Assembly (NCBI GenBank): GCA_045535665.1 | Contig: JAZSMD010000003.1 | Coordinates: forward strand, 8,306 to 72,305 | Direction of reading: 5' to 3' | Length of the DNA stretch: 64,000 bases | DNA from: Eubacteriales bacterium | Lineage (GTDB): Bacteria > Bacillota > Clostridia > Oscillospirales > UBA644 | Shown here: positions 8,618 through 63,651 of the stretch, one piece after another | How positions within the stretch are numbered: the stretch's first letter is position 1 | Layout: each line of letters begins with the position of its first letter | The notes under the pieces: model-generated | The model's input: only the letters and a program-made list of their open reading frames with translations | Told to the model about the DNA's origin: nothing | Database searches by the model: none | Position numbers and translations under genes: made by a program

Positions 8618-8650
8618 CTCCATTCTACCGCCTTACAACGATTTAAATTT
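8618..8650 (-). promoter_or_regulatory. Pre-SD hairpin motif, copy A (serine hydrolase)
   Basis: mRNA sense: AAATTTAA-ATCGT-TGTAAG-GCGGT-AGAAT-GGAG; the stem here needs G-U pairs. Confidence 0.55.
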
Positions 8651-8664
8651 CATATCTTACTTAT

Positions 8665-8693
8665 AATATATCATATTTGGAAGAATTTTTCAA
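8665..8693 (-). promoter_or_regulatory. SigA-type promoter of the serine hydrolase
   Basis: TTGAAA-17 nt-TATATT with TG extension. Confidence 0.55.
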
Positions 8694-8819
8694 TGTCTCC
8701 CCTGTCATGTTTTAAAAAAAATCACAATTACGATCATACAAGCCCAAACTAAAAAAACTCCCACATTTCTGCCACAGAACAGACCTTGTTATACTTTATT
8801 TTTAGGTTATAATATAAAT

Positions 8820-8963
8820 GTAAATTGATTTGGATATACTCATTGGTGTTCATACCTATTGAAAAACTCCTTTAATCATATTTTCAATTACTATCTCCCC
8901 TCTAAATTTTTTTCTATTCATTTTGAAAAGCCCAAGTTTCTTGCTTGGGCTTTCCTCCTTTTT
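8820..8963 (+). ncRNA. Candidate small RNA with C-rich anti-SD-like motifs
   Basis: TTGTTA-16-TATAAT at 8786-8813; hairpin AAAGCCCAAG/CTTGGGCTTT near 8927-8953; no convincing ORF; CTCCTT, CTCCCCTC and CCTCCTT motifs. Confidence 0.4.
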
Positions 8964-8988
8964 AAGGAATTTTGAAAATATTAACTAT

Positions 8989-9048
8989 TGTGGGAAAACT
9001 TTTTTCTTGTAAAAAAAGTTTTCCCACACTCTTTCAAAAAAGCAAATT
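8989..9048. repeat. REP-like palindrome, copy 1
   Basis: TGTGGGAAAACTTTTTT...AAAAAAGTTTTCCCACA followed by tail CTCTTTCAAAAAAGCAAATT. Confidence 0.8.
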
Positions 9049-9081
9049 AACTTTTTATTCAAATAACAAAATATGAAAATT

Positions 9082-10860
9082 TCAATAGAACCTAAATCCA
9101 AACAACGCATACGGAGCAACAGCACCGTCATCAATCCTTGTTATCGTAAGATAATAACGAATATCCTCTTCCATATAAAAGGGCTCCAATATTGAATCTC
9201 CGCAAACTTCAACAGATAAAATACATGGGTCATCGTCACTAAATCTGTTTTCATAAGCACGTTGCCGCACCTGAATAAGATAATGAGCATCTGTGCTGTC
9301 AGATCGGAAATATTTCAAGATCAATTCTCCATTACCCTCATACAAATTTTGTAGTTTTTCACGAGATACAGCTTCATGATAATCATAATCGCTGTTTTTA
9401 TCCCAATTATAATCATTCAAGGATCGAGTAAATACCTCAAGCTGTTCAACAGAGAAGTCTTTATATATATCAAAACTCACATTGCCAAGTTCATTATAAA
9501 AGATATTCTTTTTGGAAATTGAAAGTTTTTCGGGACTTGAAAGCTTAACCGATATCTGCCATTGGTAAATGAATGAATCGTTATAAAGGAAAATTCGGTA
9601 AGTCTTAGCCGTAAATTCAGCTTCAGGAAGTTCAACATTCAAGGGCTCACCTTCTGTTATTTTGCCGCTATAAAACGGTTCAGCATAGTTTTCAGAATCG
9701 AAAATTCGAAATTCAGCAGTTCCAAAACCGAAACCTTCATCTAAAATAAAGGTACAATCCACCTTATTTTGACCGAGCTCCGCTTCACAATTTACGGGAT
9801 ACTGTGCATATTCAAGATCGATATTTGCCAATACTTTCGGGGCATTCTCTGAATACGACTTCTTTATGCAATTATCCACAAGCTGAACAGATTCATAGTC
9901 TATTTGCGTTGGAACAACAATATCTGTAACAGAGCTGTTCTTGGGGGATATTGCCTTAACAAGTTCAGCATCATAAGTCAACTCTTTGCCGCTTATATCT
10001 ATGGTAAAACGAGCCAAAGCCATTGGTGCTTCATAGCCCTTTTTGACAAATTTAGACTCGTGCACACGTTTATCTTCCTCAGTATATCCTGCATCTTCAA
10101 AATAACGATCAGTTCTGACGCTCAATGGTACGCCAAAATAAAACGGTTTGGAGAATTTTTCCATATCTATACCGGAAATACCGTTTCCGTCATCACCAAA
10201 AAGTAATGTACGGTAAGAATAGTTCATTTCATCGGAAGTAGTTCTCATATACATTCCTTCAAATTTCTTCTGAAGATCCGAATCAAGAGGTTTAATAAAA
10301 GCTTCAAAATCTTCCACAGTCATAAATTTCGGGGGCTCAAATGTCTGATGACCGTTCCGATAACTAATAAAAAAATCCTGTAAAAGAAGAACTTCTATTT
10401 CAACCTTATCTTCAGTCACTTCGGTAAAGCGAACGCCATGCTCCCAAGTTTTCGTATAAGGATCATAATATCCTGAGCCACCGACAACATTATATGTAAA
10501 AACAGTTTCACCTGCCTTATTTACACCGTAAAGCTCAGATCTGCCAAGAGATATCTCTCCGCTATTTTTATTTTCTATACTAAAAGAAAAACCACCGTCG
10601 ATATAAACATATCTAACCGCAAAATTCTCATTTTCAACAAGAGTTACACCTTGCTTTGATTCCGTCTCTTTCGGAACACTTCCCGTAAAAACATAACCTT
10701 CCTTAAATTCATGATATAACTTATCATGTTCATACGCAATAAAGATATCAGCTCCGTAAACGGTCCTTATAGCAGCTCCGACAGCAAAAACAAATGCAAC
10801 AAAAACACATAAAAGTATGTATTTCAGTATGCGGTTTTTATTATCCTTTCTTAAATCCAT
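9082..10860 (-). CDS. Hypothetical membrane-anchored protein; N-terminal half resembles the N-terminal region of the DUF5696 protein in this window
   Basis: N-terminal TM helix; motif similarity by eye to 36024-39002; start moved to ATG 10860 after GGAGGT. Confidence 0.6.
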   Translation of the reverse strand: MDLRKDNKNRILKYILLCVFVAFVFAVGAAIRTVYGADIFIAYEHDKLYHEFKEGYVFTGSVPKETESKQGVTLVENENFAVRYVYIDGGFSFSIENKNSGEISLGRSELYGVNKAGETVFTYNVVGGSGYYDPYTKTWEHGVRFTEVTEDKVEIEVLLLQDFFISYRNGHQTFEPPKFMTVEDFEAFIKPLDSDLQKKFEGMYMRTTSDEMNYSYRTLLFGDDGNGISGIDMEKFSKPFYFGVPLSVRTDRYFEDAGYTEEDKRVHESKFVKKGYEAPMALARFTIDISGKELTYDAELVKAISPKNSSVTDIVVPTQIDYESVQLVDNCIKKSYSENAPKVLANIDLEYAQYPVNCEAELGQNKVDCTFILDEGFGFGTAEFRIFDSENYAEPFYSGKITEGEPLNVELPEAEFTAKTYRIFLYNDSFIYQWQISVKLSSPEKLSISKKNIFYNELGNVSFDIYKDFSVEQLEVFTRSLNDYNWDKNSDYDYHEAVSREKLQNLYEGNGELILKYFRSDSTDAHYLIQVRQRAYENRFSDDDPCILSVEVCGDSILEPFYMEEDIRYYLTITRIDDGAVAPYALFGFRFY

Positions 10861-10874
10861 AATCCACCTCCGGT

Positions 10875-11153
10875 TCATTTAACTTCCAACGTAATATATC
10901 CCTTTTCCGCTGAATCCGTAAAGATTTTCAACATAGTCTCTCCATATTCTCCGAGATTTTTTCTTATTGAAGAGCTGTATTTCAGCTTTATGGTAATATT
11001 TTTATCGTAACTTGACAAAACATCTGCAAGTGCATCAAGATTTTTACCGTAATAAGGGGGAAAACCTTTCTTTTTCGCAAGATATTCATGGGTTTTCTCA
11101 TTGGTTTTGCATCTGCGACCGTCTATTGTAATACTTTTTCTCATAAAACTCAT
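10875..11153 (-). CDS. Barstar family ribonuclease inhibitor
   Basis: Signature FPPYYGKNLDALADVL; directly downstream of a barnase-like gene. Confidence 0.92.
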   Translation of the reverse strand: MSFMRKSITIDGRRCKTNEKTHEYLAKKKGFPPYYGKNLDALADVLSSYDKNITIKLKYSSSIRKNLGEYGETMLKIFTDSAEKGYITLEVK

Positions 11154-11156
11154 ATC

Positions 11157-11726
11157 TTATTCCTCTCCGTAAAGCAACTCAAAACTTTCGTAGTGGTCAT
11201 CTGTATAATAAATAAGACCGTCATTTGAAAAAACTATTCGCTTAGCACCGCGGGAGTTTTTTCCCAAAGTGTCTATATCGCACTCCGTATAGGTTCTGCC
11301 GTCTTTTTTTGGTAAAAGACCTTCGTAATTTCCGAAATAATCCCCACCGATACATTTGCCCTTTGCATAATCTTCAAGACCTCCGCCTTCCCAACCGAGG
11401 GAACGGGCTTCATCTTTTGTAATGAAATTATCGGGGAGCCTACCGTAAGTTCTAATATAAAGAGCAACATCATCTTTAGAGGTATAAACACCGTCCTCTG
11501 CGATCATCGAGCTTTCCACATCTGCAATATCGGACTCTGTCAAAACATCTGAAGACGGATCCGAAACTGTAGGATCATTTTCATAATCCTCAAGAGAATC
11601 ATATGCAACCTCTGCCAGCTCACCGAGAGCATCAAATACTTCACCTATTCCGTCACAAGAGGTAAAAGAAGAAAGTGTCACAAGAGCAGCAAGTAAAAAT
11701 AACAGTAATTTAGAAAACTTTTTCAT
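11157..11726 (-). CDS. Barnase-like guanyl-specific ribonuclease, lipoprotein
   Basis: Lipobox FTSC, acidic linker, LPDNFITKDEARSLGW, IGGDYF, YTECDI, RIVFSNDGLIYYTDDHY (catalytic Glu/Arg/His positions retained). Confidence 0.92.
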   Translation of the reverse strand: MKKFSKLLLFLLAALVTLSSFTSCDGIGEVFDALGELAEVAYDSLEDYENDPTVSDPSSDVLTESDIADVESSMIAEDGVYTSKDDVALYIRTYGRLPDNFITKDEARSLGWEGGGLEDYAKGKCIGGDYFGNYEGLLPKKDGRTYTECDIDTLGKNSRGAKRIVFSNDGLIYYTDDHYESFELLYGEE

Positions 11727-11765
11727 ATAAACAATCCTTTCTTATGGTAATATATAATAAAATCA

Positions 11766-11818
11766 GCGGGGAAAACTTCTTTAACGGGAAAAAAGTTTTC
11801 CCCGCACTTTTTTAAAAA
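11766..11818. repeat. REP-like palindrome, copy 2
   Basis: GCGGGGAAAACTT...AAGTTTTCCCCGC plus tail ACTTTTTTAAAAA. Confidence 0.78.
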
Positions 11819-11893
11819 TAGATGTTGGGTAAATAACTGTTGATCATATATTGACCGGAAAATCTATAAAAGAAATCCGTCTCAATTTTTTAT

Positions 11894-12664
11894 TTAGTTG
11901 AATTCAAGAACCGCACTCACGGGGTAATGGTCAGAAATAAACGCAGCTTCCGTATCGTAATTATTCCAAAGTCTAACGTCAGTAGCCCTTACGTTTTTAT
12001 CTGCAAAAATGTAGTCGATCTTATTTTTACACTGACCGAAATTATGGAATGAATATGCCAGATCTTTTGTAACATCGCAAAGAGGATGTCTTTCAAATGC
12101 AAGAGTTTCTGTTATTGCAACGCTGTCGGGTTCCGCATTGAAGTCCCCTGTCATAATAACGGGGATATCAAAGAGGTCACAGTCCTTTTCGATCTTGGCA
12201 AGGATCTGTCTCATGCCCAACTGACGAGCCTTTTCGCCTTCGTGGTCAAGATGTGTGTTGTAAACAGCAATAAGTCTACGGTCAACCCTGTCATAAAAAC
12301 GAGCCGCAACGCAAATTCTCGGACACATACTCTGTTCTTCAAATCTTGTTCCGGGAATTGACGGTGTGGGAGAGAGCCAAACCATATCAAGCCAACAAAG
12401 GTCAAATCTCTCTTTATTGTAAAGAATAGGATTGCTTTCACCGCGAAGATCCGCATCTCTGCCGCAGCCTATAATACCGTATTCGGGAAACGCAGATTTA
12501 AGCCAATCCTGAGCTTCAGGCTGAACTTCCTGAAAACCGATAAAATCAGCCTTTTCTTCCTTTATGGCAGTATATATGTTAGGCATATGCTTAAAAAATC
12601 TGTCGGGATACCTGCCATGATGTGTGAGAATATTAAACGTACAAACTTTAATTGGAGTGCTCAT
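11894..12664 (-). CDS. Endonuclease/exonuclease/phosphatase (EEP) family protein
   Basis: TFNI, GFQEV, NTHLDH, GDFN, IDYIF and SDHYPV motifs. Confidence 0.93.
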   Translation of the reverse strand: MSTPIKVCTFNILTHHGRYPDRFFKHMPNIYTAIKEEKADFIGFQEVQPEAQDWLKSAFPEYGIIGCGRDADLRGESNPILYNKERFDLCWLDMVWLSPTPSIPGTRFEEQSMCPRICVAARFYDRVDRRLIAVYNTHLDHEGEKARQLGMRQILAKIEKDCDLFDIPVIMTGDFNAEPDSVAITETLAFERHPLCDVTKDLAYSFHNFGQCKNKIDYIFADKNVRATDVRLWNNYDTEAAFISDHYPVSAVLEFN

Positions 12665-12948
12665 TTTTTAAACCATCCTTTTTTCTTAATTTTTTCCTTA
12701 TTTCTTTGAGACGGCGGAACATCGCTGAATGTTTCATCAAAATCTTCGCTTTCCGCAACAGGTTCTATCACACGAATAACAGGATCGTTCATGTTCGGAT
12801 ATTTTGAACGGTATTTCTTCTTTATCTCTGCAATTCTTTCATTTTCGGAATCACTTATATCTGCACCGTCGAAAGATTTACGCAAACCGCAAATACAAAA
12901 ATATCCGTTTTCATCCTCAGTCATCAGCTTACCGCATTTACAAAACAT
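12661..12948 (-). CDS. Small hypothetical protein with a putative zinc ribbon
   Basis: CKCG...CICG; SD AAGGAG; stop overlaps the EEP start (ATGA). Confidence 0.65.
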   Translation of the reverse strand: MFCKCGKLMTEDENGYFCICGLRKSFDGADISDSENERIAEIKKKYRSKYPNMNDPVIRVIEPVAESEDFDETFSDVPPSQRNKEKIKKKGWFKK

Positions 12949-12962
12949 TTATAACTCCTTAT

Positions 12963-14417
12963 TTAATCAATAAGTTCATATATGGGGAAATTGGGAACCA
13001 TATAATCCTCAATAAGTGCGGGATAAATATCTTTAAGCTCTTCAAGAACTACAGCAATAGATCTTGGATCGTCACCATCGATAGCTCCTTTTGCGAACCC
13101 TGCACGCCAAAGGTCGTCAAACCCGTTATCAGAATTATCGCTGAATGTCCAATATGTATAAGTACCGTTTTTATAGGTATTCATTGCATATTCAGCATCT
13201 TCGTAAGTATATACGACATTTGAAGAAAGATATTCAAATCTGTCTTGCTCTGTTTCAAAACCGGTAAAAGGCTCACAAAGCATATCTATGATTGCAAAAT
13301 CAGCTTCGGGATCAAGTGCTGTATAGAAAACAGAGAAAGACTCCGTAGCTTCAATTGCTGAGGGCCACTTTCCGTATTCGCCTTTTGGACCTGTGGGGAA
13401 AGGTGCAACGCTGTAATTCTGAACTTCATAAACGATATCGTTATAAAGTATAGACGCCGCAGTAAGACAAGCAACAGAATTCTGTTCTACGGTAAAAGCT
13501 TCTATGATATCAGGCCAGTCTCCCATATCCGGAGTAAAATTATCTGTATATTTTTCTCTGAGGTCATAGTAGAACTGAGCAGCTTCAATAAGATTATCTG
13601 CACCGAAGTCTGTAGCATAACCGTTTTCTGTTTCATATGCAAGTCTGACGCCGTTACCGTAAGCCAAAAGCTTTACAACGTCCATGCCTCGTGCCGCAAG
13701 AGAATAAACGCTGTTATCGCCGTCAGCATTGGAAGACTCTGCAATAACTGTTTCAAAGGCATCCCAGTTCCATGTTCCGTTCTCAATAAATTCCTTAGGA
13801 TCGGGAGTTGCATACTTTTTCATAAGATCGTCATTAAACACAAGAAGCTCAAGAGCTCTGGGTTGCTTGTACATCCAGGAAATTGGAGATACTGCGTAAA
13901 TATGTCCGTTTACGGCATTCATCTCCTGAATATTTGCAGTTCCGTATTTTTCTGTGTTTTTATAATCGATATAAGAACCATATTCATCGACGATTTCAAG
14001 ATATCCTGCTTCAGCCTGATGCTTCATAAGTGCATGAGAGGGAGAATAAAGCACATCCTGCTGAACATTATCAGCCATAAGCTTTACGGAAAGAAGTTCC
14101 CAAGTGTCTTCCAAAACGGATAATACTATATCGCATCCTTCGGCTTTTTCTATATCTGAAATACGATTAAGAACGGCATCCGCAAGGTCTGTATTTTCCT
14201 TGTATCCGAAAGGGTTGTTTTCATCAATTACAAGACCTGTAGAATCCGAATGAATAGACATGGCTATTGTACAAATAAAATCATCCAGAATCAGCCCCTC
14301 CATACCTTCCTGTATAAAGTTCTGTAAAGTAACTTTCTGAGCGCAGGAAGAAAGAATCACCACAGACAAAAGCATAGAAAGAAGAAGTACTAAAATACGG
14401 TTAAGTGTAGATTTCAT
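12963..14417 (-). CDS. Extracellular solute-binding lipoprotein (carbohydrate type), orphan
   Basis: Lipobox LSSC; FN..L, GTWNWD and PFPTGP motifs; paralog of 17460-18911; start moved to ATG 14417. Confidence 0.8.
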   Translation of the reverse strand: MKSTLNRILVLLLSMLLSVVILSSCAQKVTLQNFIQEGMEGLILDDFICTIAMSIHSDSTGLVIDENNPFGYKENTDLADAVLNRISDIEKAEGCDIVLSVLEDTWELLSVKLMADNVQQDVLYSPSHALMKHQAEAGYLEIVDEYGSYIDYKNTEKYGTANIQEMNAVNGHIYAVSPISWMYKQPRALELLVFNDDLMKKYATPDPKEFIENGTWNWDAFETVIAESSNADGDNSVYSLAARGMDVVKLLAYGNGVRLAYETENGYATDFGADNLIEAAQFYYDLREKYTDNFTPDMGDWPDIIEAFTVEQNSVACLTAASILYNDIVYEVQNYSVAPFPTGPKGEYGKWPSAIEATESFSVFYTALDPEADFAIIDMLCEPFTGFETEQDRFEYLSSNVVYTYEDAEYAMNTYKNGTYTYWTFSDNSDNGFDDLWRAGFAKGAIDGDDPRSIAVVLEELKDIYPALIEDYMVPNFPIYELID

Positions 14418-14431
14418 AATAATACCTCTTT

Positions 14432-16063: not shown

Positions 16064-16094
16064 ATATTCAAAATCCTTTCCTGTTTTAATTCTA

Positions 16095-17441: not shown

Positions 17442-17459
17442 TGTTTTTTCTCCTTTTAA

Positions 17460-30985: not shown

Positions 30986-32416
30986 TCAAATTTCTTTTAT
31001 TTTCTGTTGATATTTATTTTCTGTTTGATTAGTGGGAATAGCTATCGGATATTCACCTGTGAAACAACCTGCACAAAGACCTAAGTTACACCCTCTTGCA
31101 ATATTGAACACTGATTCGACATCAAGGAAACAGAGAGTGTCTGCACCAATCTGTTTGCAAATTTCATCAATTGTAAGTCTGCACGCAATAAGATTTTCTT
31201 TAGATTCTATATCCGTACCGAAATAGCAGGGATTAATAAACGGAGGTGAAGAAATTCTCATATGTATTTCTTTTGCACCGGCTTCACGGAGAAGTTTTAT
31301 GGTATTTGCGGTCGTTGTACCTCTTACGATAGAGTCATCAACAACAACTACACGTTTGCCCTCAACTGCAGATTTAAGTATATTAAGTTTGATTTTTACC
31401 GAGCGCTCACGCTGCGATTGAGTTGACTGAATAAATGTTCTTCCGATATATCTGTTTTTAATGAAACCTACTCCATAAGGTATACCGCTTTCAAGTGAAT
31501 AACCCAATGCAGCATCAAGACCTGAGTCGGGAACACCGCATACTATATCAGCATCTACGGGAAAAGCTTTTGCAAGATATCTTCCTGCTTCCTGACGTGC
31601 AAAATGAACAGAAGCACCGTCTATTACAGAGTCAGGACGTGCTGTATAGATATATTCAAAAACACAAAGTCCGCACTTGGATCTGTCAATAGTTTCATCT
31701 TTTATTTCAGTAATTCCCTCATCGGAAACAACGACTATCTCACCGGGTTCAATATCTCTGATAAATTCAGCACCGAGAGTATCAAATGCACAGCTTTCGG
31801 AAGCAAAAACAACACTTTCGCCAATTTTACCCATACAAAGAGGTCTGATAGCCTTCGGATCGCGGGCTGCAATAAGCTTGCTGGGACTCATAAGAACCAA
31901 AGAGTATGCACCTTCAAGCTTTTTCATAACATTTTTAAGAGCCATTTCAATGGAAGGGCATTTAATTCTTTCTCTTGCAAGAAGATACAACATAATCTCA
32001 GCATCGTTTGTTGTCTGGAAAATAGCACCGGAGTTCTCAAGCTCTGCTCGAAGTGCGGCAGCATTCACAAGCGTACCGTTATACGCCAAAGCAAGTGTAC
32101 CTTTTATGTATTTTGAGACAAGAGGTTGAGCATTTTCTCTGTTTGCAGATTTTGATGTTGCGTAACGGCAGTGACCGACAGCTATTCTGCCACCTTCAAG
32201 ATGTTTCATAACCACAGGGTTGAAAACATCGGGCACAAGGCCAAGATCTTTGTAAGAAACTATTATACCGTTATCATTTACCGCAATACCGCAACTTTCC
32301 TGACCGCGGTGCTGGAGGGCAAACAAAGCAAGATATGCCTCTTCCGCAACTTTTAATTCCGCATCTTTGGAAAAAATACCAAATACACCACATTCTTCAT
32401 GAATTTCATCAAACAT
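30986..32416 (-). CDS. purF: Amidophosphoribosyltransferase
   Basis: EECGVFG propeptide/Cys1, [21 protein letters not shown], Fe-S cysteines (CAGC). Confidence 0.97.
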
Positions 32417-32427
32417 TTATTTATAAT

Positions 32428-32460
32428 CCCCATTCTGCCGCTGTTGCGGCATTTAAATTT
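32428..32460 (-). promoter_or_regulatory. Pre-SD hairpin motif, copy B (purE-purF intergenic)
   Basis: AAATTTAAAT-GCCGC-AACA-GCGGC-AGAAT-GGGG. Confidence 0.65.
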
Positions 32461-32482: not shown

Positions 32483-32971
32483 TCAGATCATTTCGTTGAT
32501 TTTGGAATCCTTTTCCAAAATCTCTTTTTCCATATCTGCTTTATATTTAACCAATTTTTCGTTGAGTTCAGGCTCACTTAGAGCAAGCATCTGAACAGCA
32601 AGAAGAGCAGCATTTGCACTTCCGTCAATTGCTACAGTTGCTACCGGAATACCCTTAGGCATCTGAACTGTGGAAAGAAGGCTGTCCAAGCCGTCCATTG
32701 TAGAACTTTTTACCGGAATACCGATAACAGGAAGAACTGTATTTGCAGCCATTACGCCTGCAAGATGTGCAGCTTTTCCTGCGGCACAAATAAGACATCC
32801 AAAACCGTTAGCTGCAGCATTTTTGGAAAACTCTTCTGCGGCACGGGGAGTTCTGTGTGCGGAGTAAATATGAGCTTCAAACTCAACTCCGAATTTCTTT
32901 AAAATATCAAATGCGGGCTTAATTACGGGAAGATCGCTGTCACTACCCATTATAATAGCTACTTTTTTCAT
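32483..32971 (-). CDS. purE: N5-CAIR mutase
   Basis: IMGSDSD, SAHRTP, AGKAAHL, VQMP.G.PVATV; start moved to ATG 32971. Confidence 0.97.
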   Translation of the reverse strand: MKKVAIIMGSDSDLPVIKPAFDILKKFGVEFEAHIYSAHRTPRAAEEFSKNAAANGFGCLICAAGKAAHLAGVMAANTVLPVIGIPVKSSTMDGLDSLLSTVQMPKGIPVATVAIDGSANAALLAVQMLALSEPELNEKLVKYKADMEKEILEKDSKINEMI

Positions 32972-32977
32972 TTTAGT

Positions 32978-33010
32978 CTCCAATCCGCCGCCTTTGCCGC
33001 GGCTAAAGTT
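32978..33010 (-). promoter_or_regulatory. Pre-SD hairpin motif, copy C (purE)
   Basis: AACTTTA-GCCGC-GGCAAAG-GCGGC-GGATT-GGAG. Confidence 0.65.
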
Positions 33011-36027: not shown

Positions 36028-39002
36028 TTTACCTTCACCTCCAAATAACCTTTAGCAGGAATTACCGTGGTCTCATCGGCAAGTTCAACATCATAGTCAT
36101 TGTAGTTTACAATGAATTTAACGGAGTCACCGTATGTTGTTGCATAAACACCGCTTGTGGGGATTCTATTGTAGGAAGCATTAAGTTCGCCATCAACATA
36201 GTTTTCATCACCTTCAGCATAGTATGTTCTTTCGCCATCATATACATGATATGCTTCAAGAATTTCATGTGCTGTCATGGGTTTATTAGCAACTTTATTC
36301 ATAAGACCGGAGATTTCTTTATAAAGCTCAACGGCAATATCAAAAGAATCCTTGTAATTTACAGAGTACCAATCCTGGAATACATAGTCTGTATTGTTGA
36401 GGATGCTGTTATCAGCGCCCATCCACTTGAAGTATACGCCGCTACCTGTTTCAAGCATTTCAAGAATTGCCGTAGAGTAGTCAGCAGATTCGTTCAGAGG
36501 AGAACTTGCATAGTCAATATAACCGTGAAGAACCATCTGAATGAAGGGGATAGCTTCGGATGTGGACATATACTGGCTGGAACCCATGGGGAGGTTGAGA
36601 ATATGAGATGCATATTTCCAGGTATAATCGTTACCTGTTTGAACCATCATATCGTAGCCGTCAAATGTTTCGATAGCCTGAATATGATATTCGAGAGCCT
36701 GTGTACGGTTCTTGATTCTACCAATCTTATAGTTGGAGTTGATAACAGAACCGATATCGCCAAGAGAAATCTGTTTGTTGGAAACGAGGTTTTCAAGATC
36801 AGATTTGAAGCCTGCCGCAAGATTGGGGATCTTATCGGGAGCAATAACTGTTTTATCAAAACCTGACTTCCAAATATAACCGGTAGCATAATCTCTTTCA
36901 AGATCTCTTGCAACTGTCATATCGAGACGACGTGCTGCATCCTGAGAATAATTCATAGAGTCAAATGCTTCGTCTTTTACAACGTAGATAAAGTTTGCAT
37001 CGGGATAGAAGCCGATCTTACTGCTCTGGAGAGCTTCGGAAACTGATTTGAGTTCAGATTTGGAACCAAGAACAGAAACGGGATCTGCACCGTCAAATAT
37101 TGTGTTGTAATAACCGTCATTTGCCCAATAGAGATATCTGAAATTAATGTTTTCAACGCCTTCAGCAAGGAGGGCATCTGCAATTTCCTTAACCTGGTTG
37201 TAAGTTGTAAGAGCTACAACGTGGTCAACAGGAACACCTACTACAGATTCTGTCTTATTGATAGCACCGAGGAGGTCTACATAGAAAGGAACTGAGGAAT
37301 CGGATTTAAGACTTGCAGGGAGAATCTCATGTTCAATGAGATAATCTCTGTAGAATTCAGCATATTCGGAATATGTCATGTCGCCCTTTGTGAAGAAGTA
37401 ATCAACTGTGAAGACAGCAATATTATCTTCTTTAGAAAGGATAGCACCGGCACTGGATGTATCGTCGCTCTTTGTGCTGCCTGAGATTTCTTCAGAACCA
37501 CCCTGACCACCGGAATATGTGAGGTAGCTTCGTTCAGCATAAACGAGGTCATAGTTGATAGATGCTGTGGGGTTATTTGTAGTATTGGAAGGTCTTGCAG
37601 AAGCGTAGGCCTGAGCACCGCCATTTGAAAGAATCGCAACCATACCACCTAATGTTGAACGGTCAAACGCCAGGAACGGAGTTACAACCTGTTCTTCGGG
37701 GGTAATATCATATTCAACCTGGAAGGTGTCATCCAAACCGTATACACGACCTGTATATACGTCTTTTGTAAGATCACCTGCAATAGGCATGATAGCACCG
37801 GAACCATCGGGAATGATGATATACTGATCGTTCTGAATGATCTTATCTTTTGTACCAAGGATCTTGCTTCCGACTTCTACAGGCATGATAGCACCGAGAG
37901 TTCTGTACAAATAGATTTTGTACATCTTCTGTTTCTGAGGAGCAAGGATAAGATTTGAGTCAACTGTTACGCTGAGACCTTCTTCTGTAAGAGTAAGATC
38001 AACGGGAATTGTATACATAACGGCTCTTGCGGGACCGCTGTATTCAACTGCGTCCATTTCTTTTTTAAGCATATCAGCATTGAAGCCTGCCATTTCCATG
38101 GACTCTTTAACGATCATTTTCTGACGTACGTTAAGTGTACGAACGATCATCATGGGGAACATTTCGATTGTGGGATAGTCATCAATAAAACGTTCTTTAT
38201 CTTCAAGCGTAAGCCCATCAGGTGTAACAGACTTATAACAGTTCCAAAGTTTTTTGTACTGTGATTCACCGCCATCTTGTTTTTCAAGTCTTGTTTTGAT
38301 CCATTCCCAAGTTTCCATTGTAACAACAGGAGGAACAAGGTCGGAGTCGGGGTCATTACCGATTGTGTAGATAACGCGGATAGTGTCATCGTCAACCTTG
38401 GTAATTGTAAGACGTTTGGAATCAGCACAATGCTGCATATAGTTAAATTCATAACGTTTGTTGGAAACGTCATAAGCTTCAAGGGCAATGGGAGAAACGA
38501 TGGGTTCGAAAACTTCTGGTTCTACACCTTTACCGTTTGAATATGTACCGGTGAAGTTATAGGGGTCAGAATGGTAAACATGACCTGTATTTTTATCAAC
38601 GATACAAATAGCACTCATTCTTTCCTGATCTGTCTTATATGTAAGATCCATATAAAGCTCAAAGTTATCATTTTCAAGAATAAGAGTCATATTTTCGTTA
38701 CCGCGTCTGATACCGTCAACTACAGAGTTTTTAGAACCGACAGTGTTATCATATTTCTTTGCGATAACCCATTCTTCTTCTGTTTTAACGATTTCCATGC
38801 CGGTATCGTCAATTTCAGTTGTTTCTGTCTTAACGTTTTCAGCAATTATTTCGCTGTCACCGATAAGAGTGAGAATATGTTCTTCTCTCTGCTCATCTGT
38901 AATGTAACCTTCATTTACATCTTTTTCACTGCAGGAAGTGAAGGATACAAGAGATGTGATCATAATAGAAAGCAGCAGAACGAAAGAAAGTATTTTTTTC
39001 AT
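36024..39002 (-). CDS. DUF5696 domain lipoprotein
   Basis: Lipobox FTSC; IPDGSGA, VYGLD, TTY.Q, GFYPD, IPF.QMVLHGYIDY, TYG...FIVNY; position within the SBP-permease-NHL-Yip1 cluster; start moved to ATG 39002. Confidence 0.8.
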   Translation of the reverse strand: MKKILSFVLLLSIMITSLVSFTSCSEKDVNEGYITDEQREEHILTLIGDSEIIAENVKTETTEIDDTGMEIVKTEEEWVIAKKYDNTVGSKNSVVDGIRRGNENMTLILENDNFELYMDLTYKTDQERMSAICIVDKNTGHVYHSDPYNFTGTYSNGKGVEPEVFEPIVSPIALEAYDVSNKRYEFNYMQHCADSKRLTITKVDDDTIRVIYTIGNDPDSDLVPPVVTMETWEWIKTRLEKQDGGESQYKKLWNCYKSVTPDGLTLEDKERFIDDYPTIEMFPMMIVRTLNVRQKMIVKESMEMAGFNADMLKKEMDAVEYSGPARAVMYTIPVDLTLTEEGLSVTVDSNLILAPQKQKMYKIYLYRTLGAIMPVEVGSKILGTKDKIIQNDQYIIIPDGSGAIMPIAGDLTKDVYTGRVYGLDDTFQVEYDITPEEQVVTPFLAFDRSTLGGMVAILSNGGAQAYASARPSNTTNNPTASINYDLVYAERSYLTYSGGQGGSEEISGSTKSDDTSSAGAILSKEDNIAVFTVDYFFTKGDMTYSEYAEFYRDYLIEHEILPASLKSDSSVPFYVDLLGAINKTESVVGVPVDHVVALTTYNQVKEIADALLAEGVENINFRYLYWANDGYYNTIFDGADPVSVLGSKSELKSVSEALQSSKIGFYPDANFIYVVKDEAFDSMNYSQDAARRLDMTVARDLERDYATGYIWKSGFDKTVIAPDKIPNLAAGFKSDLENLVSNKQISLGDIGSVINSNYKIGRIKNRTQALEYHIQAIETFDGYDMMVQTGNDYTWKYASHILNLPMGSSQYMSTSEAIPFIQMVLHGYIDYASSPLNESADYSTAILEMLETGSGVYFKWMGADNSILNNTDYVFQDWYSVNYKDSFDIAVELYKEISGLMNKVANKPMTAHEILEAYHVYDGERTYYAEGDENYVDGELNASYNRIPTSGVYATTYGDSVKFIVNYNDYDVELADETTVIPAKGYLEVKVK

Positions 39003-48629: not shown

Positions 48630-49205
48630 TCAGCTTTCAAAAACATCAAGCTTTTTTGTTGAATAGTAAAAAATCAACACAAAAGCAATGTTTACGGGTA
48701 AAGCAATTAAATAAGAACTGAACGGAAGTTGAACAAACTGGAAAATCACAAAGGCAACAGCCAACGCAACATAAAGCATGAAAAATACTGTATATGTTAC
48801 AGACCAGCCTCTGTGGGAAATACTGTCAGCCTCGGCCATCATCGCAAGGCTGAAAAATGCGGTACAGATCATAGTGATCGCATAAATTATGCTGTCAATA
48901 TGACTTATACTGCTTTCGAGAAGCTTCACAAACACGGCAAATACTTCAGAATCGATACTGCCGGTCCATGAACTAAAGAAAAATCGGATCTGGGATATAA
49001 AAGTCAAAACTGTTATAACCAACATTCCGGTGGAAAAAACCTTTACTTCCCTAAACCATCTGTTTGAGGATTCAACTTTGTCCAAAGAAAGGCACAAAAG
49101 AAGATATCCGACGAAATCAGGGAGTATATCAACAACAACGGAAGAGCCGATACTCATATTGTAGTTAAAAAGGACAAATATAAGTCCTAAAAAAACAAGT
49201 CCCAT
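48630..49205 (-). CDS. Hypothetical integral membrane protein
   Basis: Five to six TM segments; DILPDFVGY motif near the N-terminus. Confidence 0.75.
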   Translation of the reverse strand: MGLVFLGLIFVLFNYNMSIGSSVVVDILPDFVGYLLLCLSLDKVESSNRWFREVKVFSTGMLVITVLTFISQIRFFFSSWTGSIDSEVFAVFVKLLESSISHIDSIIYAITMICTAFFSLAMMAEADSISHRGWSVTYTVFFMLYVALAVAFVIFQFVQLPFSSYLIALPVNIAFVLIFYYSTKKLDVFES

Positions 49206-49209
49206 AAAT

Positions 49210-49240
49210 AGCCTTTCCGTCGCCTAAGGCGACATAACTT
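49210..49240 (-). promoter_or_regulatory. Pre-SD hairpin motif, copy D
   Basis: AAGTTAT-GTCGC-CTTAG-GCGAC-GGAAA-GGCT; stem covaries (C-G to T-A). Confidence 0.55.
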
Positions 49241-49423: not shown

Positions 49424-49465
49424 AACGACTTCTGCCATTTCGACCTAAATACAGACGCCTAACCT

Positions 49466-56363: not shown

Positions 56364-56389
56364 AATTTATACCTCATTAGTCATTATTA

Positions 56390-56423
56390 GGTTTTCCCCG
56401 TACCCCTTTCAAAAAAGCGAATT
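56390..56423. repeat. REP-like element, half copy 6 (right arm plus tail only)
   Basis: GGTTTTCCCCGTACCCCTTTCAAAAAAGCGAATT versus copy 1 AGTTTTCCCACACTCTTTCAAAAAAGCAAATT. Confidence 0.7.
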
Positions 56424-56526
56424 TGGGGGGATTTAATATTATTTTTATTAAGTATTCTTAAAAGGAAGATTTTATATATAAAATCGATTCCAATGCTTTA
56501 CAAATTTATTTTTATGAAATAAAGTC

Positions 56527-57939: not shown

Positions 57940-57959
57940 ATCTATCTTTCCTTTCAAAT

Positions 57960-58712: not shown

Positions 58713-58728
58713 AACAAAATTTCAGTTA

Positions 58729-60954
58729 TCAGTTGTCTTTACCTGCATTTTTTCCTTCAAAAGTACAGCCTTCTTTTTCACAAATAAGCTTACCGAACTT
58801 TTTGAAGAGAGTCGAACCGCACACGGGGCAGGTCTCTTTAGTGGGAAGATCCCAGGTCATGAATCCGCAATCTTTACCTTTTTCACAAGCATAGAAAACT
58901 TTACCGTTTTTGGAACGTCTGACAGTCATCTTTCCTCCGCATTTGGGACAAAATCCATCAGCTTCAACAACTATAGTTTTCGTATTTTTGCAAGTGGGAT
59001 AATTGGGGCAAGCAAGGAATCTGCCAAATCTGCTTACCTTATATACCATTCGGCTGCCGCAAAGTTCACAGATAACATCGCTTTCTTCGTTGGGAACTTC
59101 AATTTTCACGCCATCAAGTTTCTTTTCTGCCTCGGAAAGCTCAACGGAGAAATCCTTATAGAAATCTTTCATGACATCAATATAAGTAGTTTCACCATCT
59201 TCCACCTTATCAAGGTTCTTTTCCATATCTGCGGTAAAAGTCACATCTACTATATTCTTGAAATTCTCTTCCATTATTTCAGTTGTGATAAAGCCGAGAG
59301 CTGTAGGTTTAAGAGATTTCCCCTCTTTTTCCGTATAACGTCTGCCGAGAATAGTGGCAATGGTCGGAGCATAAGTTGAAGGTCTGCCGATACCGTTTTC
59401 CTCCAAAGCTTTAATAAGCGAAGCTTCGGTATATCTTGAAGGGGGCTGTGTAAATTTCTGTTCAGAAACGACCTCTTTAAAATTCAGAAGATCTCCCTCA
59501 TTAAGTTCGGGAAGTTTTTTCTGAGACTCTTCGCCATCTTCTGTATAATTGTAAAGAACTGTAAATCCATTAAAGACAAGCTTGGAATCGGAAGCTTTAA
59601 GAATATAATCTGTATTTTCGGAAGGATTCACAGCACTTACTTCAACATTTACGGTATTATAAATAGCTGAAGACATTTGGCTTGCTATAAATCTGTCCCA
59701 AATAAGCTTATAAAGCTTATACTGCTCTGTCGTAAGACTGTCTTTTATCTTTTCGGGAGGTAAAGTAATGTCTGTGGGACGTATAGCTTCATGAGCATCC
59801 TGTGCAGAGCTCTTTGTTTTATAAATTCTTGGTGTTTTCGGATAGTACTCTTCACCGTAATGAGTTTTAATAAAATCTGACGCTGCAGCCTGAGCATCCA
59901 CTGATATTCTGAGTGAGTCGGTTCTCATATATGTGATAAGACCGATAGTTCCTTTCCCCTTAATATCAACACCTTCGTAAAGCTGTTGTGCAACGCTCAT
60001 GGATTTCTGGGGACGCATATTGATTCTTGAAGATGCATCCTGTTGGAGAGAGGATGTTGTAAATGGAGGCTTCGGTGCTTTTGCCTTTTCCTGACGCTTG
60101 ATACTGCTTACCGTAAACTGAGACTTTTCAAGCTGAGACTTTATCTTGTTTGCTGAAGCTTCATCGTTTATGGCAATTTTACCGTTTTTATCTCCGAAGA
60201 AACTTGCAGACCATGTCTTTTTGCCATTTGCAAATATTACATCAAGAAGCCAATATTCAACAGGTACAAAGGCCTGTATTTCACGTTCCCTATCAACAAC
60301 AAGCTTTGTTGCAACAGACTGAACTCGACCTGCGGAAAGACCTGTTTTAACCTTTTTCCAAAGGAAAGGACTGAGCTTATAGCCTACGATACGGTCAAGA
60401 ACACGTCTTGACTGCTGAGCATTAACTCTGTTCATATTTACAGCCCTTGGCTCGGCAACGCCGTCTTTTACCGCATTTTTCGTAATCTCGTTAAAAGAAA
60501 CTCTGACTTTACTTTCGGGGTCGATTCCTAGAACCTGAGCAAGATGCCATGCAATAGCTTCCCCTTCGCGGTCAGGGTCAGTTGCAAGAAGAACACGTTT
60601 ACTGTCTTTTGCCGCAGCCTTAAGTTCCTTGATAACCGCGGACTTTCCGTCTTTTCGGGGAACAATATACTCAGGGGTAAATCCATTTTCAATGTCCACA
60701 CCGATTCGGGAAGCGGGAAGATCTCTTATATGTCCTTTCGAAGAAAGAACCTCGTATTTACTTCCGAGATATTTTTTGATCGTTTTAGCTTTTGCGGGAG
60801 ACTCCACAATAAGAAGGTTTTCATATGTGGGAGACTTTTTCTTACTGCCCGCAGCTTTTTTTGTTGTTTTGGAGTCGGATTTTACAGCGATCTTTTTTGC
60901 TGCAGAAACATCCTTTCCCAACTCTTCAGGATTATTTGCTTTAGTTTTTGCCAT
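58729..60954 (-). CDS. topA: DNA topoisomerase I with a Lys-rich N-terminal extension
   Basis: IVESPAKAK, ATDPDREGE, SAGRVQS, ITYMRTDS, GIGRPSTY; C-terminal zinc ribbons. Confidence 0.98.
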   Translation of the reverse strand: MAKTKANNPEELGKDVSAAKKIAVKSDSKTTKKAAGSKKKSPTYENLLIVESPAKAKTIKKYLGSKYEVLSSKGHIRDLPASRIGVDIENGFTPEYIVPRKDGKSAVIKELKAAAKDSKRVLLATDPDREGEAIAWHLAQVLGIDPESKVRVSFNEITKNAVKDGVAEPRAVNMNRVNAQQSRRVLDRIVGYKLSPFLWKKVKTGLSAGRVQSVATKLVVDREREIQAFVPVEYWLLDVIFANGKKTWSASFFGDKNGKIAINDEASANKIKSQLEKSQFTVSSIKRQEKAKAPKPPFTTSSLQQDASSRINMRPQKSMSVAQQLYEGVDIKGKGTIGLITYMRTDSLRISVDAQAAASDFIKTHYGEEYYPKTPRIYKTKSSAQDAHEAIRPTDITLPPEKIKDSLTTEQYKLYKLIWDRFIASQMSSAIYNTVNVEVSAVNPSENTDYILKASDSKLVFNGFTVLYNYTEDGEESQKKLPELNEGDLLNFKEVVSEQKFTQPPSRYTEASLIKALEENGIGRPSTYAPTIATILGRRYTEKEGKSLKPTALGFITTEIMEENFKNIVDVTFTADMEKNLDKVEDGETTYIDVMKDFYKDFSVELSEAEKKLDGVKIEVPNEESDVICELCGSRMVYKVSRFGRFLACPNYPTCKNTKTIVVEADGFCPKCGGKMTVRRSKNGKVFYACEKGKDCGFMTWDLPTKETCPVCGSTLFKKFGKLICEKEGCTFEGKNAGKDN

Positions 60955-60995
60955 TATTTAAATTCACCTTTCGGGGATATATTTCAATTTGATGA

Positions 60996-62222
60996 TTATT
61001 CCTTTAATTTATAAAGTCCACCGGGAAGAGATTCAACATAGCCGTTGATTTCAAATCCGTTCAGGATAGAAACCGCTTGAGGGAATATAATTCCCGTAGC
61101 ATCGCATACGGAATCTGCGGATAAAGGGCCATCTTTCAGCGCATTTATAACCGATTCTTCCTTTTCAGATAAAGCACAGTAGAGTATCGGTCGTGGGACA
61201 TTGATCTTTTCAGAGTCACTCTCACATTTCGATTCTTCTGATTGGAAATTTTCACTTTTAGTTGTGGATTTTTCTGAGGAAACAGGATTTACAGTCTCCG
61301 AGGCAATTGAAATCTTTGCCATACGGTCCGGACGTTTAAATTTCTGCCCAAATATAATCTCATATTCTGAGATTATATCCTCGCTGCATGCACAGATACT
61401 CGCACCTGTTCTGATCAAATGGTTGGTTCCTTCACTTGTTTTTGCTCCTGGGCTTCCGGGAACAGCGAAGATAGTTTTACCCTGTTCCAAAGCATGACGG
61501 ACAGTTATCATAGAACCGCCCCTCATATTGGATTCAACAACGACTACTGCATGGGACAAACCACTGATTATACGGTTACGCAAATGAAAATTAAACGCTT
61601 GGCATTGTGTTCCCGGTAAATATTCTGAAATGACTGCACCTGTATCACAAATTCTTGAATACAGCTCTGCATTCCTTTTGGGATAAATAATATCCACGCC
61701 ACAGGGTAAAACAGCAACAGTTTTGCCTCCTGCAAGAAGGGATCCCTTATGGGCATAAGTATCAATACCTTTTGCCATTCCGCTAACTACCACAAAGCCG
61801 GTCCGAACAAGGTCATATGCAAGTCCCGCCGAAAACTTTCCGCCATACAGAGAGCAATCTCTCATACCGATAATTCCCAATGTGGGGCAGCTTTTCATTG
61901 GAGGAAGTTCTCCTTTAACAAAAAGAATTGCGGGAGGCTCTTCAATATCTCTGAGCTGAGAAGGGTATGTCTCATCATAGTACGTAACTATTTTTATGCG
62001 GTTTTTCTCGCAGTATTCAAGATATTTTTCAGCTTTGGAAGTATTTGAAGACAAGAGCGAAGATAACTGCTTTTCTTTAAAACCTGCATCAAGAAATATT
62101 TTTTTATCTGCATTAAATATGTCTTCAGGACTGTCAAATATTTTCAAAATCCTGTATACACTTTTTGAACATTGAGGAAAGCTCGTCACAAGACGAAGCA
62201 TTAAAAAAGCATTATTTTTCAT
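60996..62222 (-). CDS. dprA: DNA-processing protein DprA
   Basis: YP..L..I..PP, VSGMAKGID..AH, RNRIISGLS, AVPG, G.N.LI..GA; upstream of topA. Confidence 0.96.
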   Translation of the reverse strand: MKNNAFLMLRLVTSFPQCSKSVYRILKIFDSPEDIFNADKKIFLDAGFKEKQLSSLLSSNTSKAEKYLEYCEKNRIKIVTYYDETYPSQLRDIEEPPAILFVKGELPPMKSCPTLGIIGMRDCSLYGGKFSAGLAYDLVRTGFVVVSGMAKGIDTYAHKGSLLAGGKTVAVLPCGVDIIYPKRNAELYSRICDTGAVISEYLPGTQCQAFNFHLRNRIISGLSHAVVVVESNMRGGSMITVRHALEQGKTIFAVPGSPGAKTSEGTNHLIRTGASICACSEDIISEYEIIFGQKFKRPDRMAKISIASETVNPVSSEKSTTKSENFQSEESKCESDSEKINVPRPILYCALSEKEESVINALKDGPLSADSVCDATGIIFPQAVSILNGFEINGYVESLPGGLYKLKE

Positions 62223-62965
62223 TTTTCTAAAGATGCACGGTACATAACTATACCTGCCGCAACTGCCGCATTGAGAGACTCAACACCCTCAATGGGAATA
62301 TACAAAGTTTTATCACACATCGAATAAAGTTTAGGAGACATTCCCTTTCCTTCACTGCCGATAACAACTGCAAATTTCTCTCCGAAATCAGATACAGCTG
62401 TTTCAAGGTCACAGGAATATTGGTCAAGGGCCGTGCCGTAAATCTTGTAACCGTGCTGCTTCAACTTTTCCACAATTTCCAACATGGGGAATTTACGAAC
62501 ATATGTCGTCAGACAAGCTCCTGCGGAACTTCTAACTGTTTTTTCAGAAAATGGATCTGCGCCTCCGCCGCAAACAACCCCAAAACCAAAGGCCTTTGCA
62601 GTTCTGACTATAGTTCCCACATTTCCGGGATCCTGAACACAATCCAAAAGCAAAAGTTTATTGGGAATAGGAAGAGGCTTTTTGCAAACCACAGCCAATA
62701 ACGCTGAGGGAGATACCGTGCCCGAAATTTTTTCCATAACCTCAGGAGTCACAACGTAAAGCTGTGCATCCGAAGGAAGTTTGAGTATAAGATCAGAATG
62801 TTTTCCCTCATCGGTAACAAAAAGCATTTTTATAACAGAAGGATCGCTGTCATATATAAATTTTTCACCTTGAAGAAGAAAAGCTTCTTCCGAAGGTTTT
62901 GAACGTATATCATTGATCTTTCCCACTATGGGATTTTTTCTGCTTGTAATATAATATCTCATCAT
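62219..62965 (-). CDS. TrmH/SpoU family RNA methyltransferase
   Basis: QDPGNVGTIVRTA, GSEGKG, ESLNAAVA. Confidence 0.93.
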   Translation of the reverse strand: MMRYYITSRKNPIVGKINDIRSKPSEEAFLLQGEKFIYDSDPSVIKMLFVTDEGKHSDLILKLPSDAQLYVVTPEVMEKISGTVSPSALLAVVCKKPLPIPNKLLLLDCVQDPGNVGTIVRTAKAFGFGVVCGGGADPFSEKTVRSSAGACLTTYVRKFPMLEIVEKLKQHGYKIYGTALDQYSCDLETAVSDFGEKFAVVIGSEGKGMSPKLYSMCDKTLYIPIEGVESLNAAVAAGIVMYRASLEK

Positions 62966-63612
62966 TTTACCAACTTATTTATATCTTCATTTGTTCCTAT
63001 AACAACAAGAATATCGTTCTCAACAAAAACGTAATCGGGAAGAGGTGACACATTTATATCATCGGAATATCTTTTTTTTATGGCAACCACGTTCACCCCG
63101 TAAACCGCACGGATATTCAGCTGCTTAAGAGATTTACCGAAAAATGTTTTGGGTGCTTCAACCTCAACAATAGAGTATTTATCAGAGAGATCTATGTAAT
63201 CAAGAATACTCGTTGCTGTAAGATTCTGTGCCAATTTTTCTGCCATATCCTTATCGGGGAAAACGACTTTATCAGCTCCGACCTGTTTAAGAACTTTTGC
63301 ATGCAGCTCCGTAACCGCTTTACTTACGACACACTTCACGCCTAAGCCCTTAAGCATGGAAGTTATAAGAATACTTGACTCTACTTTTTCGGAAATAGTA
63401 ACTAAAATACAATCAAATTCCGTTATTCCCAAGGCTTTCAATGCAGATTCGTCAAGAGCATCTGTCTGAACTGCATGAGTAACACTATCTGCAACTGCCT
63501 GTACATTTTCCATATCGTAATCTATGGCAAGAACTTCATTGCCCAACGAGGCAAGTCTCAAAGCAAGGCTTCTTCCGAATCTTCCAAGACCGATAACCGC
63601 AAATGATTTCAT
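62962..63612 (-). CDS. ktrA: TrkA/KtrA family potassium uptake regulatory subunit
   Basis: VIGLGRFG, H.KVL..VGAD.VVFP, GKSL..L.IR..YGVNVVAI; start moved to ATG 63612. Confidence 0.92.
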   Translation of the reverse strand: MKSFAVIGLGRFGRSLALRLASLGNEVLAIDYDMENVQAVADSVTHAVQTDALDESALKALGITEFDCILVTISEKVESSILITSMLKGLGVKCVVSKAVTELHAKVLKQVGADKVVFPDKDMAEKLAQNLTATSILDYIDLSDKYSIVEVEAPKTFFGKSLKQLNIRAVYGVNVVAIKKRYSDDINVSPLPDYVFVENDILVVIGTNEDINKLVK

Positions 63613-63618
63613 ATTAAT

Positions 63619-63651
63619 CTCCATTCTGCCACGAAAAGCGGCATAAAACTT
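63619..63651 (-). promoter_or_regulatory. Pre-SD hairpin motif, copy E (ktrB-ktrA intergenic)
   Basis: AAGTTTTAT-GCCGC-TTTTC-GTGGC-AGAAT-GGAG. Confidence 0.65.

Follow-up and report, generated by a model that had tools for sequence, protein, structure and literature searches.

The hairpin that lies directly upstream of the Shine-Dalgarno (SD) sequence of several unrelated genes in the window, a 64-kb stretch of DNA (C30:8306-72305 of the genome G000) that was analysed as a whole, is in our opinion probably the conserved 3' ribosome-binding module of a dispersed family of leader repeats found in one order of gut Clostridia. Copies of the module would be gained at single genes and then held by selection, each one acting as a self-contained ribosome-binding site (RBS) unit. 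The motif itself is real: its stem covaries, its wobble pairs are biased to one strand, copies have been gained and lost between genomes, and it is spread over the order. G000 is a metagenome-assembled genome (MAG) of 2.4 Mb in 94 contigs, with 39% GC and rated 87% complete. The nearest relative of its PurF protein (93% identity) comes from a goat-rectum 'Clostridia bacterium' MAG and the next ones, ~62% identical, come from Oscillospiraceae and Ruminococcaceae MAGs, relatives that would place G000 among uncultured gut Clostridia. A preliminary description of the window had pointed out five hairpin-SD sites, here designated A to E (Table 1), and all five are present, on the minus strand.

The 15-mer core of the motif, GCGGCRGAWTGGAGA, has 20, 26 and 28 matches in G000 at zero, one and two mismatches, respectively, whereas 100 permutations of this consensus average 0, 0.24 and 6.45 matches and the reversed consensus gives 0, 0 and 2. 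A start codon with an open reading frame (ORF) of at least 40 amino acids follows 62 of the 74 core matches, compared with 129 of 669 permuted-consensus matches (19%), which bears out the earlier proposal of a genome-wide element at a fixed distance from the starts of unrelated genes. GGAG stands 6 nt before the start in 37 of the 62 ORF-preceding copies. A perfect 5-bp stem is formed in 28 of them, for which the chance expectation is ~5% by a hand estimate, and its arms are GCCGC/GCGGC, GCTGC/GCAGC, GTCGC/GCGAC, GCCAC/GTGGC, GCCTC/GAGGC or GCTAC/GTAGC. At least one of the 62 is false, as it lies within a phosphoglycerate mutase gene (C16+30973). The 2039 GC-rich 5-bp hairpins of G000 were also sorted by how far away the next GGAG is: 5 nt (26 hairpins) and 6 nt (17) stand out, with 3-11 hairpins at each of the other distances. 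Moreover, a covariance model (R1), seeded with an ungapped alignment of seven copies, reports 53 sites in G000 with E up to 1, 29 of them below 0.01, and recovers copies A, B, C and E. The model also finds two pairs of modules on contig C31, 145 nt apart (38140-38180 and 37995-38035) and 367 nt apart (3882-3920 and 4249-4287); the pairs precede mreB and an iron-containing alcohol dehydrogenase gene, and the first module of each pair precedes only a very short ORF.

Pairing in the stem was studied with an alignment (A3) of 62 model matches taken from 100 loci of G000 and 18 other genomes, in which 60 distinct rows were counted. Since the rows were fitted to the covariance model, pairing is favoured by construction in the figure of 98% of 294 stem cells that pair; when the register is slid, 21-89% of the cells pair. 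Changes on both sides are seen in four of the five stem pairs, and none of 500 shuffles reaches the observed values. Over all 62 rows there are 26 G.U or U.G cells and just two A.C or C.A cells. From this excess it follows that the hairpin acts on the sense strand, where it is selected, most likely in the mRNA, as far as sequences can tell. The compensatory and wobble changes already described for the window copies thus extend to the larger alignment. The module reads wTATTTRT, GCCGC, a loop of 3-10 nt, GCGGC, RGAATGGAGATTA, usually 3 nt more and then ATG, which puts GGAG 6 nt ahead of the start codon, and the logo of A3 gives wTATTTRT, the stem and R G A A/t T G G A G A T T A. The loops are not conserved across copies. 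Beyond the stem, the conserved part is the 18-mer GCGGCRGAATGGAGATTA, which contains the SD, and for this reason the RGAWW stretch, present as first described, has to be counted as part of the module, with a predicted pairing to 16S rRNA of its own, instead of as a mere spacer. Searches with Rfam 15 gave no match at gathering score in the 64-kb window and, at E <= 1 over eight long-element loci, returned just a lysine riboswitch, a tRNA and two chance matches elsewhere, none of them on the repeat, in line with the earlier remark that the structure belongs to no known RNA family. The lysine riboswitch (RF00168, 92.5 bits) lies at L145:2753-2918 of the genome G018, near a long-repeat locus, and is unrelated to the repeat.

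Table 1. Copies of the module in the window (positions of the window) and long repeats in G000
Feature	Position	Strand	Parts, in mRNA sense	Remarks
Copy A, upstream of beta-lactamase-family serine hydrolase	8609..8650	-	AU-rich run; weak stem ATCGT 8642-8638 / GCGGT 8631-8627, loop tgtaag; AGAAT; GGAG 8621-8618; ATTATT; ATG 8611-8609	Pfam Beta-lactamase; model match G000:C30:16917-16957, E 2.4e-7
Copy B, purE-purF spacer	32414..32460	-	GCCGC 32450-32446; loop aaca; GCGGC 32441-32437; AGAAT; GGGG 32431-32428; 11 nt; ATG 32416-32414	Model match, E 8.2e-4
Copy C, upstream of purE	32969..33010	-	GCCGC 33003-32999; loop ggcaaag; GCGGC 32991-32987; GGATT; GGAG 32981-32978; ACTAAA; ATG 32971-32969	Model match, E 0.004
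Copy D, upstream of 191-aa membrane protein	49203..49240	-	GTCGC 49233-49229; loop cttag; GCGAC 49223-49219; GGAAA; GGCT 49213-49210; ATTT; ATG 49205-49203	Degenerate or doubtful member
Copy E, between ktrB and ktrA	63610..63667	-	AU-rich run; GCCGC 63642-63638; loop ttttc; GTGGC 63632-63628; AGAAT; GGAG 63622-63619; ATTAAT; ATG 63612-63610	Model match, E 2.9e-5
Long repeats in G000	C1, C8, C14, C24, C28, C40, C49, C51, C63, C65, C76 (e.g. L089:124-283)			

The five window copies had been taken as one motif, and for A, B, C and E this stands, as they are recovered by the model and are beyond chance. Copy D is not recovered at E <= 1 in the scan of G000 and is therefore at best a degenerate relative. 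A degenerate sixth copy, suspected near 49428-49450, was not found by the model, and the motif is not seen there in the sequence. In the orthologous leaders of related genomes the copies have different histories. The purF copy (B) is kept in all five genomes of the genus that were compared, with AGAATGGGGA unchanged and a stem that varies by compensatory or wobble changes (GCCGC/GCGGC, GCCAT/GTGGC, GTCGC/GCGGC, GCCGG/TCGGC and GCCG/CGGT). At purE (copy C), the module is missing from the closest relative, whose leader contains another hairpin, ACCGC...GCGGT, with a plain AGGAA as SD (L001:2300-2440); in the same locus the purF module is conserved, 600 nt downstream of this altered leader. The other three copies, those of the hydrolase, the membrane protein and ktrA, are found only in G000, and the leaders of the sister genomes are without them. 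At the hydrolase gene, G002 and G004 have a plain AGGAG; at the membrane-protein gene, G011, G002, G006 and G003 have plain GGAGG or AAGGA leaders with no hairpin; and at ktrA ~57 nt are missing from the sister genomes, the ktrB stop, AAGGA and ATG of G011, G004, G002 and G006 all falling within ~18 nt without a hairpin. The window copies are probably old or reshaped members of the family, held by selection on the pairing and on the 18-mer. The motif also affects gene calling: AGAATGGAG contains an ATG (window 8623-8621 and 63624-63622, minus strand), and a GGAG-ATG spacing of 6 nt puts it in frame with the real start. In the ORF list, the hydrolase and ktrA begin four codons too soon (298 versus 294 and 220 versus 216 amino acids). 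Annotators may likewise choose this early ATG.

Besides the short copies, G000 contains ~12 near-identical copies of a long form of ~165 nt, placed between the native SD and the ATG of unrelated genes. Eleven sites match the 40-nt core of this long repeat and a twelfth copy lies at a contig end (C65); the sequence common to the long copies extends over ~175 nt and ends in the motif. It begins with a 5' hairpin, AGCGTGA-aaaa-TCACGCT, followed by a GC-rich stem, the hairpin CTCCA-tcagccgct-TGGAG, TATTTGTGCTGACGCtttaGCGGCAGAATGGAGATT, 3 nt and the ATG. Clean empty sites are available for comparison. The flavin-reductase/rubrerythrin gene reads GGAGGAATT[~165 nt]TTTATG in G000 and GGAGGAATATATTATG in G011, with a plain AGGAGG in G002 and G004, and the gene of a dihydrodipicolinate synthase (DHDPS)-family protein reads TAAGGAGaaaatcaaaATG in G004, whereas in G000 the repeat stands between GGAG and ATG. 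Without the repeat, the SD-ATG spacing is again a normal one. Of the 14 left ends of the 5' hairpin in G000, 12 adjoin an SD-like word, versus 8.9% of random positions; this left-flank SD is at a variable distance and there is no fixed target word. Within the 5' hairpin, 6-7 nt past the old SD, there is a GTG from which a mini-ORF starts (in G000, MKNHANQD*); a conserved leader peptide at this GTG was ruled out by eye, frame and peptide not being conserved in relatives. The 5' hairpin AGCGTGAaaaaTCACGCT occurs alone at three sites of G000 (two on C78, and C16:66037). At these sites it follows an SD, the ATG comes 22-31 nt later and a second SD is lacking; translation would need bridging by the hairpin or coupling from the GTG mini-ORF.

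The long repeat is present in 8 of 30 relatives (six of 15 in the same genus and two in other genera of the family), at 69-92% identity, and other genomes of the order, such as G224 and G200, possess long forms of their own that are homogeneous and share both ends. In the wider survey, 47 of 301 genomes of the order contained the exact core, with a maximum of 20 copies in one genome, the control read backwards giving 4 matches in total; elsewhere in the phylum it occurs in 4 of 150 genomes. An ORF of 100 amino acids or more follows 36 of the 41 distinct sites that were fetched from 18 genomes. In G200, which belongs to another family, all 6 exact copies lie within ~50 nt of a contig end (C32, C88, C100, C70, C137 and C157; L254-L259), and the five that include upstream sequence share TTTCATTCCTATTTGTGCTGACGC. 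The repeat breaks short-read assemblies, and therefore the copy numbers counted in MAGs are underestimates.

These data speak to the idea that the copies arose independently, by convergence on a favoured RBS context with no copying of sequence. The short copies, it is true, have only ~20 nt in common, and AGAAT is the commonest 5-mer before GGAG in G000 (29 of 656 GGAG genes), both of which would be expected in that case. Nevertheless, near-identical copies of ~165 nt before unrelated genes, the clean empty sites, an exact 15-mer common to 47 genomes and the virtual absence of permuted cores of the same composition make convergence very unlikely.

The genes downstream do not form a functional set. 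The 62 downstream proteins fall into 60 singletons and one pair, and Pfam, applied to 37 of them, gives PurE, PurF, KtrA, MreB, DnaB, the delta' subunit of DNA polymerase III (HolB), a release factor, ArgG, HflX, GH29, GH43 and GH123 glycosidases, M14 and U32 peptidases, a glycyl-radical enzyme and a BlaI-like repressor, among others; a rubrerythrin fusion, a fucosidase and the DHDPS-family protein are also preceded by the module. A regulon or metabolite-riboswitch leader was rejected for this lack of a common function or pathway. In a riboswitch, orthologous leaders would be more alike than paralogous ones, whereas here the copies within G000 are 87-100% identical to the query and those of other genomes 69-92%. 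The 23 module-bearing ORFs from relatives include only two clear homologs (96% and 59% identical) of module genes of G000, and both of the latter carry only the short, degenerate form.

How the repeat moves can be addressed by comparison with known mobile elements. No autonomous element was found in the searches for a transposase, TnpB or an internal ORF. With respect to miniature inverted-repeat transposable elements (MITEs), the ends of the repeat are not inverted repeats of each other, although there is an internal inverted repeat of ~18 nt, and the flanks have only TT or ATT on both sides, too short to call a target-site duplication. With respect to IS200/IS605-type palindrome-associated elements (PATEs), which are marked by subterminal hairpins and by insertion on the 3' side of a constant target of 4-5 nt, there are hairpins at both ends of the long form, and the 87%-complete MAG yielded only one truncated IS200-like Y1_Tnp ORF. 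The latter has 95 amino acids (C1:2058-2345, L240:1435-1722) and lies beside the fucosidase gene that has a long repeat, with no link between the two shown. Integron attC sites have the core sites R''/R', of the type RYYYAAC ... GTTRRRY, at cassette borders; the borders of the present repeat, ..TT|AGCGTG and GGAGATT|, are without them, and the copies are scattered and not in arrays, so that attC was discarded.

An explanation at the level of DNA would take the hairpin for the end of a mobile element, either an IS200/IS605-like subterminal hairpin or a MITE inverted repeat, read as single-stranded DNA by a transposase while the SD merely rides along. In keeping with it, orthologous sites are polymorphic for the presence of a copy, near-identical copies occur in bursts in G000, G224 and G200 (in the latter all six at contig ends), and there are the terminal hairpins, the internal inverted repeat and the Y1_Tnp fragment of G000. 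However, the 36 ORF-preceding sites from 18 genomes and the 62 of 74 core matches in G000 aim the SD at the downstream ORF with fixed spacing, the 26:2 ratio of G.U over A.C fits selection on the transcript, the left flanks share an SD at variable distance and not a fixed target word, and no intact transposase was found in G000. On balance, we regard this explanation as improbable.

We think that the module, read as a ribosome-binding unit that is copied between genes, would work as follows. It would bring its own SD to new genes, the long forms (~165 nt) by inserting into the native SD-ATG spacer and the short forms by substituting for the native SD region. Selection would then keep a placed copy, its stem drifting through compensatory and G.U changes while the 18-mer that holds the SD stays fixed. 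The hairpin would operate in the transcript as a GC clamp directly 5' of an interrupted extended SD, whose AGAAuGGAG has a predicted pairing, from the first base after the stem, with UCUUUCCUC at the 3' end of 16S rRNA. No 16S rRNA was found in G000 or in four of the five relatives searched, and the 3' end, GATCACCTCCTTTCT, was taken from G002, of the same genus, the mature end being presumably as in Bacillus. In the best predicted duplex (-9.6 kcal/mol), AGAA and GGAG pair around a 1x1 loop, so that AGAAuGGAG could pair with the last nine bases of 16S rRNA; R at position 1, which gives A-U or G.U with the terminal U, fits this pairing. The stem may stack on the SD:16S duplex. The most likely role would be that of a self-contained ribosome-binding unit that tolerates any upstream context, and the stem might mark or protect the 5' side of the RBS against 5'-to-3' decay or processing. 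In eight short copies an extended -10 box lies 16-35 nt upstream of the stem, a weak hint that the hairpin could be near the 5' end. More generally, 34 of 50 copies have a TATAAT-like box 16-67 nt upstream, in most cases not within the shared sequence (eight are extended -10 boxes), and the long copies sit downstream of promoters that do not belong to the repeat. The motif is not a terminator, as no U tract follows the stem in the five window copies. It was also compared by eye with consensuses for promoters (sigma-70 spacing, sigma-54, sigma-H and the Bacteroidetes -7 box), but the hexamers do not fit and fixed promoter spacing is not possible because the loop varies in length.

Several observations weigh against this reading. 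The predicted SD:anti-SD energy is merely average (mean -9.4 versus -9.2 kcal/mol), so that an unusually strong SD is unsupported, and the predicted accessibility of the SD is 0.37 in 30 module genes versus 0.44 in 200 genes sampled from the 624 non-module GGAG genes, which leaves an insulator that frees the SD equally unsupported. The invariant U of AGAAU is a mismatch with 16S rRNA. A lower stem, TATTT/GAATG, could be the reason for this U and is plausible; it pairs in 65-82% of copies and has no covariation because its 3' side never varies. The repeat is not linked to a transposase or to any other gene that could mobilise it, TnpB was not found in the 87%-complete MAG, and no repeat copy with an internal ORF was found. 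Finally, the window copies share just their 3' 18-23 nt with any other copy, for which reason the short copies are not fresh duplicates of one parent element; selection acting independently on a short stretch is conceivable.

Part of the same evidence could be read in terms of regulation. The 18-mer and the hairpin might be the operator of a trans-acting RNA-binding protein or of an antisense small RNA (sRNA), so that genes that acquire it would join one post-transcriptional regulon. Its 3' half, GCGGYRGAATGGAGATTA, is constrained far beyond the needs of an SD, as it is unchanged at purF in five species in which the rest of the spacer is unalignable, and it is identical across families of the order. 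The long repeat, besides, carries AAATCTCCATCAGCCGCT, complementary to AGCGGCAGAATGGAGATTT, and RNAalifold pairs the two in 13 long elements (G000 and seven relatives), so that an anti-SD partner would exist at least in cis. The AAATCTCCATCAGCCGCT strand alternatively forms a local covarying hairpin (CTCCAT/ATTGGAG, CTTCATC/GATGAAG or CCCCATC/GTCGGGG), and the anti-SD pairing could be a switch or a transposon-type inverted repeat. However, no candidate factor was identified, a gene set with DnaB, MreB, PurF, a fucosidase and others has no functional logic, the loops are unconserved and the long repeat of the G224 type has no anti-SD strand, so that the operator seems doubtful to us. Somewhat more open to consideration, if still tentative, is that the long form is a mobile riboregulator that homes to RBSs: it would insert between the SD of a gene and its start codon, the old SD would drive the GTG mini-ORF, the new SD would be held by AAATCTCCATCAGCCGCT or freed by the decoy hairpin, the short copies would be remnants after 5' decay, and all would belong to one shared translational control set, possibly answering to one sRNA or protein.

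With regard to the preliminary description as a whole, its interpretation is partly supported: a genome-wide element acting on the mRNA strand has held, and the functions suggested there, processing or stabilisation of the mRNA or binding of an RNA-binding regulator, may apply, whereas the membership in a dispersed repeat, with gain and loss at single genes, had not been noticed. If the ribosome-binding module is what we think it is, the translation signals of uncultured gut Clostridia would be partly modular and copyable, and ~2-4% of the genes of G000, including the essential dnaB, mreB and purF, would share one imported ribosome-binding cassette. Since its members differ in the stem but keep the same SD, the family is also a ready-made collection in which to study how a 5' hairpin beside the SD affects initiation and decay in Firmicutes. 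There are also practical consequences: automatic gene prediction can place the start of an ORF at the internal ATG of the motif, and contigs of metagenome assemblies end at the repeat. As for the long form, it could represent a novel type of element with ribosome-binding sites as its target.

No published description of the motif was found in the literature on MITEs, SDs and intergenic repeats in Clostridia, on STAB-SD and on RBS repeats, and 13-mers of the core matched no paper; several known systems are nevertheless comparable. SD-occluding hairpins include RNA thermometers of the fourU type and translational attenuators. In a similar manner, the U-rich TATTT of the module can pair with GAATG beside the SD, and the anti-SD strand of the long repeat is predicted to pair with the SD region or in a local decoy; unlike in those systems, the lower stem here is without support from covariation. 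The 5' stabilisers of Firmicutes (STAB-SD, 5' stem-loops) block decay of the RNase J1 type by means of a stem-loop, a strong site complementary to 16S rRNA, or both, situated near the 5' end. They are single-gene features that are not copied, unlike the present cassette, whose SD strength is predicted to be average. A protective or processing role has been tested for the cip-cel operon of a related clostridial species, Ruminiclostridium cellulolyticum: stem-loops that are GC-rich at the top and have AT pairs at the base cause the transcript to be cut on their upstream side and make the part downstream more stable (PMC10311766). The GC top, AU base and adjacent SD of the present module resemble such processing stems in architecture alone.

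Pneumococcal BOX, Correia and ERIC sequences are modular intergenic repeats or MITE-like elements (reviewed in PMC3184786). The present repeat is, like them, short, structured and modular, lies in transcribed intergenic regions and shows lineage-specific bursts. It differs from them in having no clear terminal inverted repeats or target-site duplication, in its strict gene-ward orientation and in providing an SD. By analogy, the closest known kind is the class of RBS-bearing repeats formed by Neisseria REP2 and the IR sequences of Borrelia plasmids, multi-copy intergenic repeats that lie directly upstream of unrelated ORFs, as outlined in Delihas 2011 (PMC3184786). The present repeat is likewise multi-copy, contains an RBS and stands directly upstream of unrelated ORFs (62 of 74), and that review describes for REP2 and IR the further shared traits of no clear terminal inverted repeats, internal stem-loops and an RBS supplied beside the start codon. 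REP2 and IR also carry a promoter and the ATG, whereas in the present family promoters, where visible, seem to lie mostly beyond the part that is repeated, and the ATG is that of the gene. In sequence it is unrelated to REP2 and IR, and what sets the present repeat apart from both is its order-wide distribution in Clostridia, an invariant 18-mer joined to a covarying stem, and insertion into the SD-ATG spacer.

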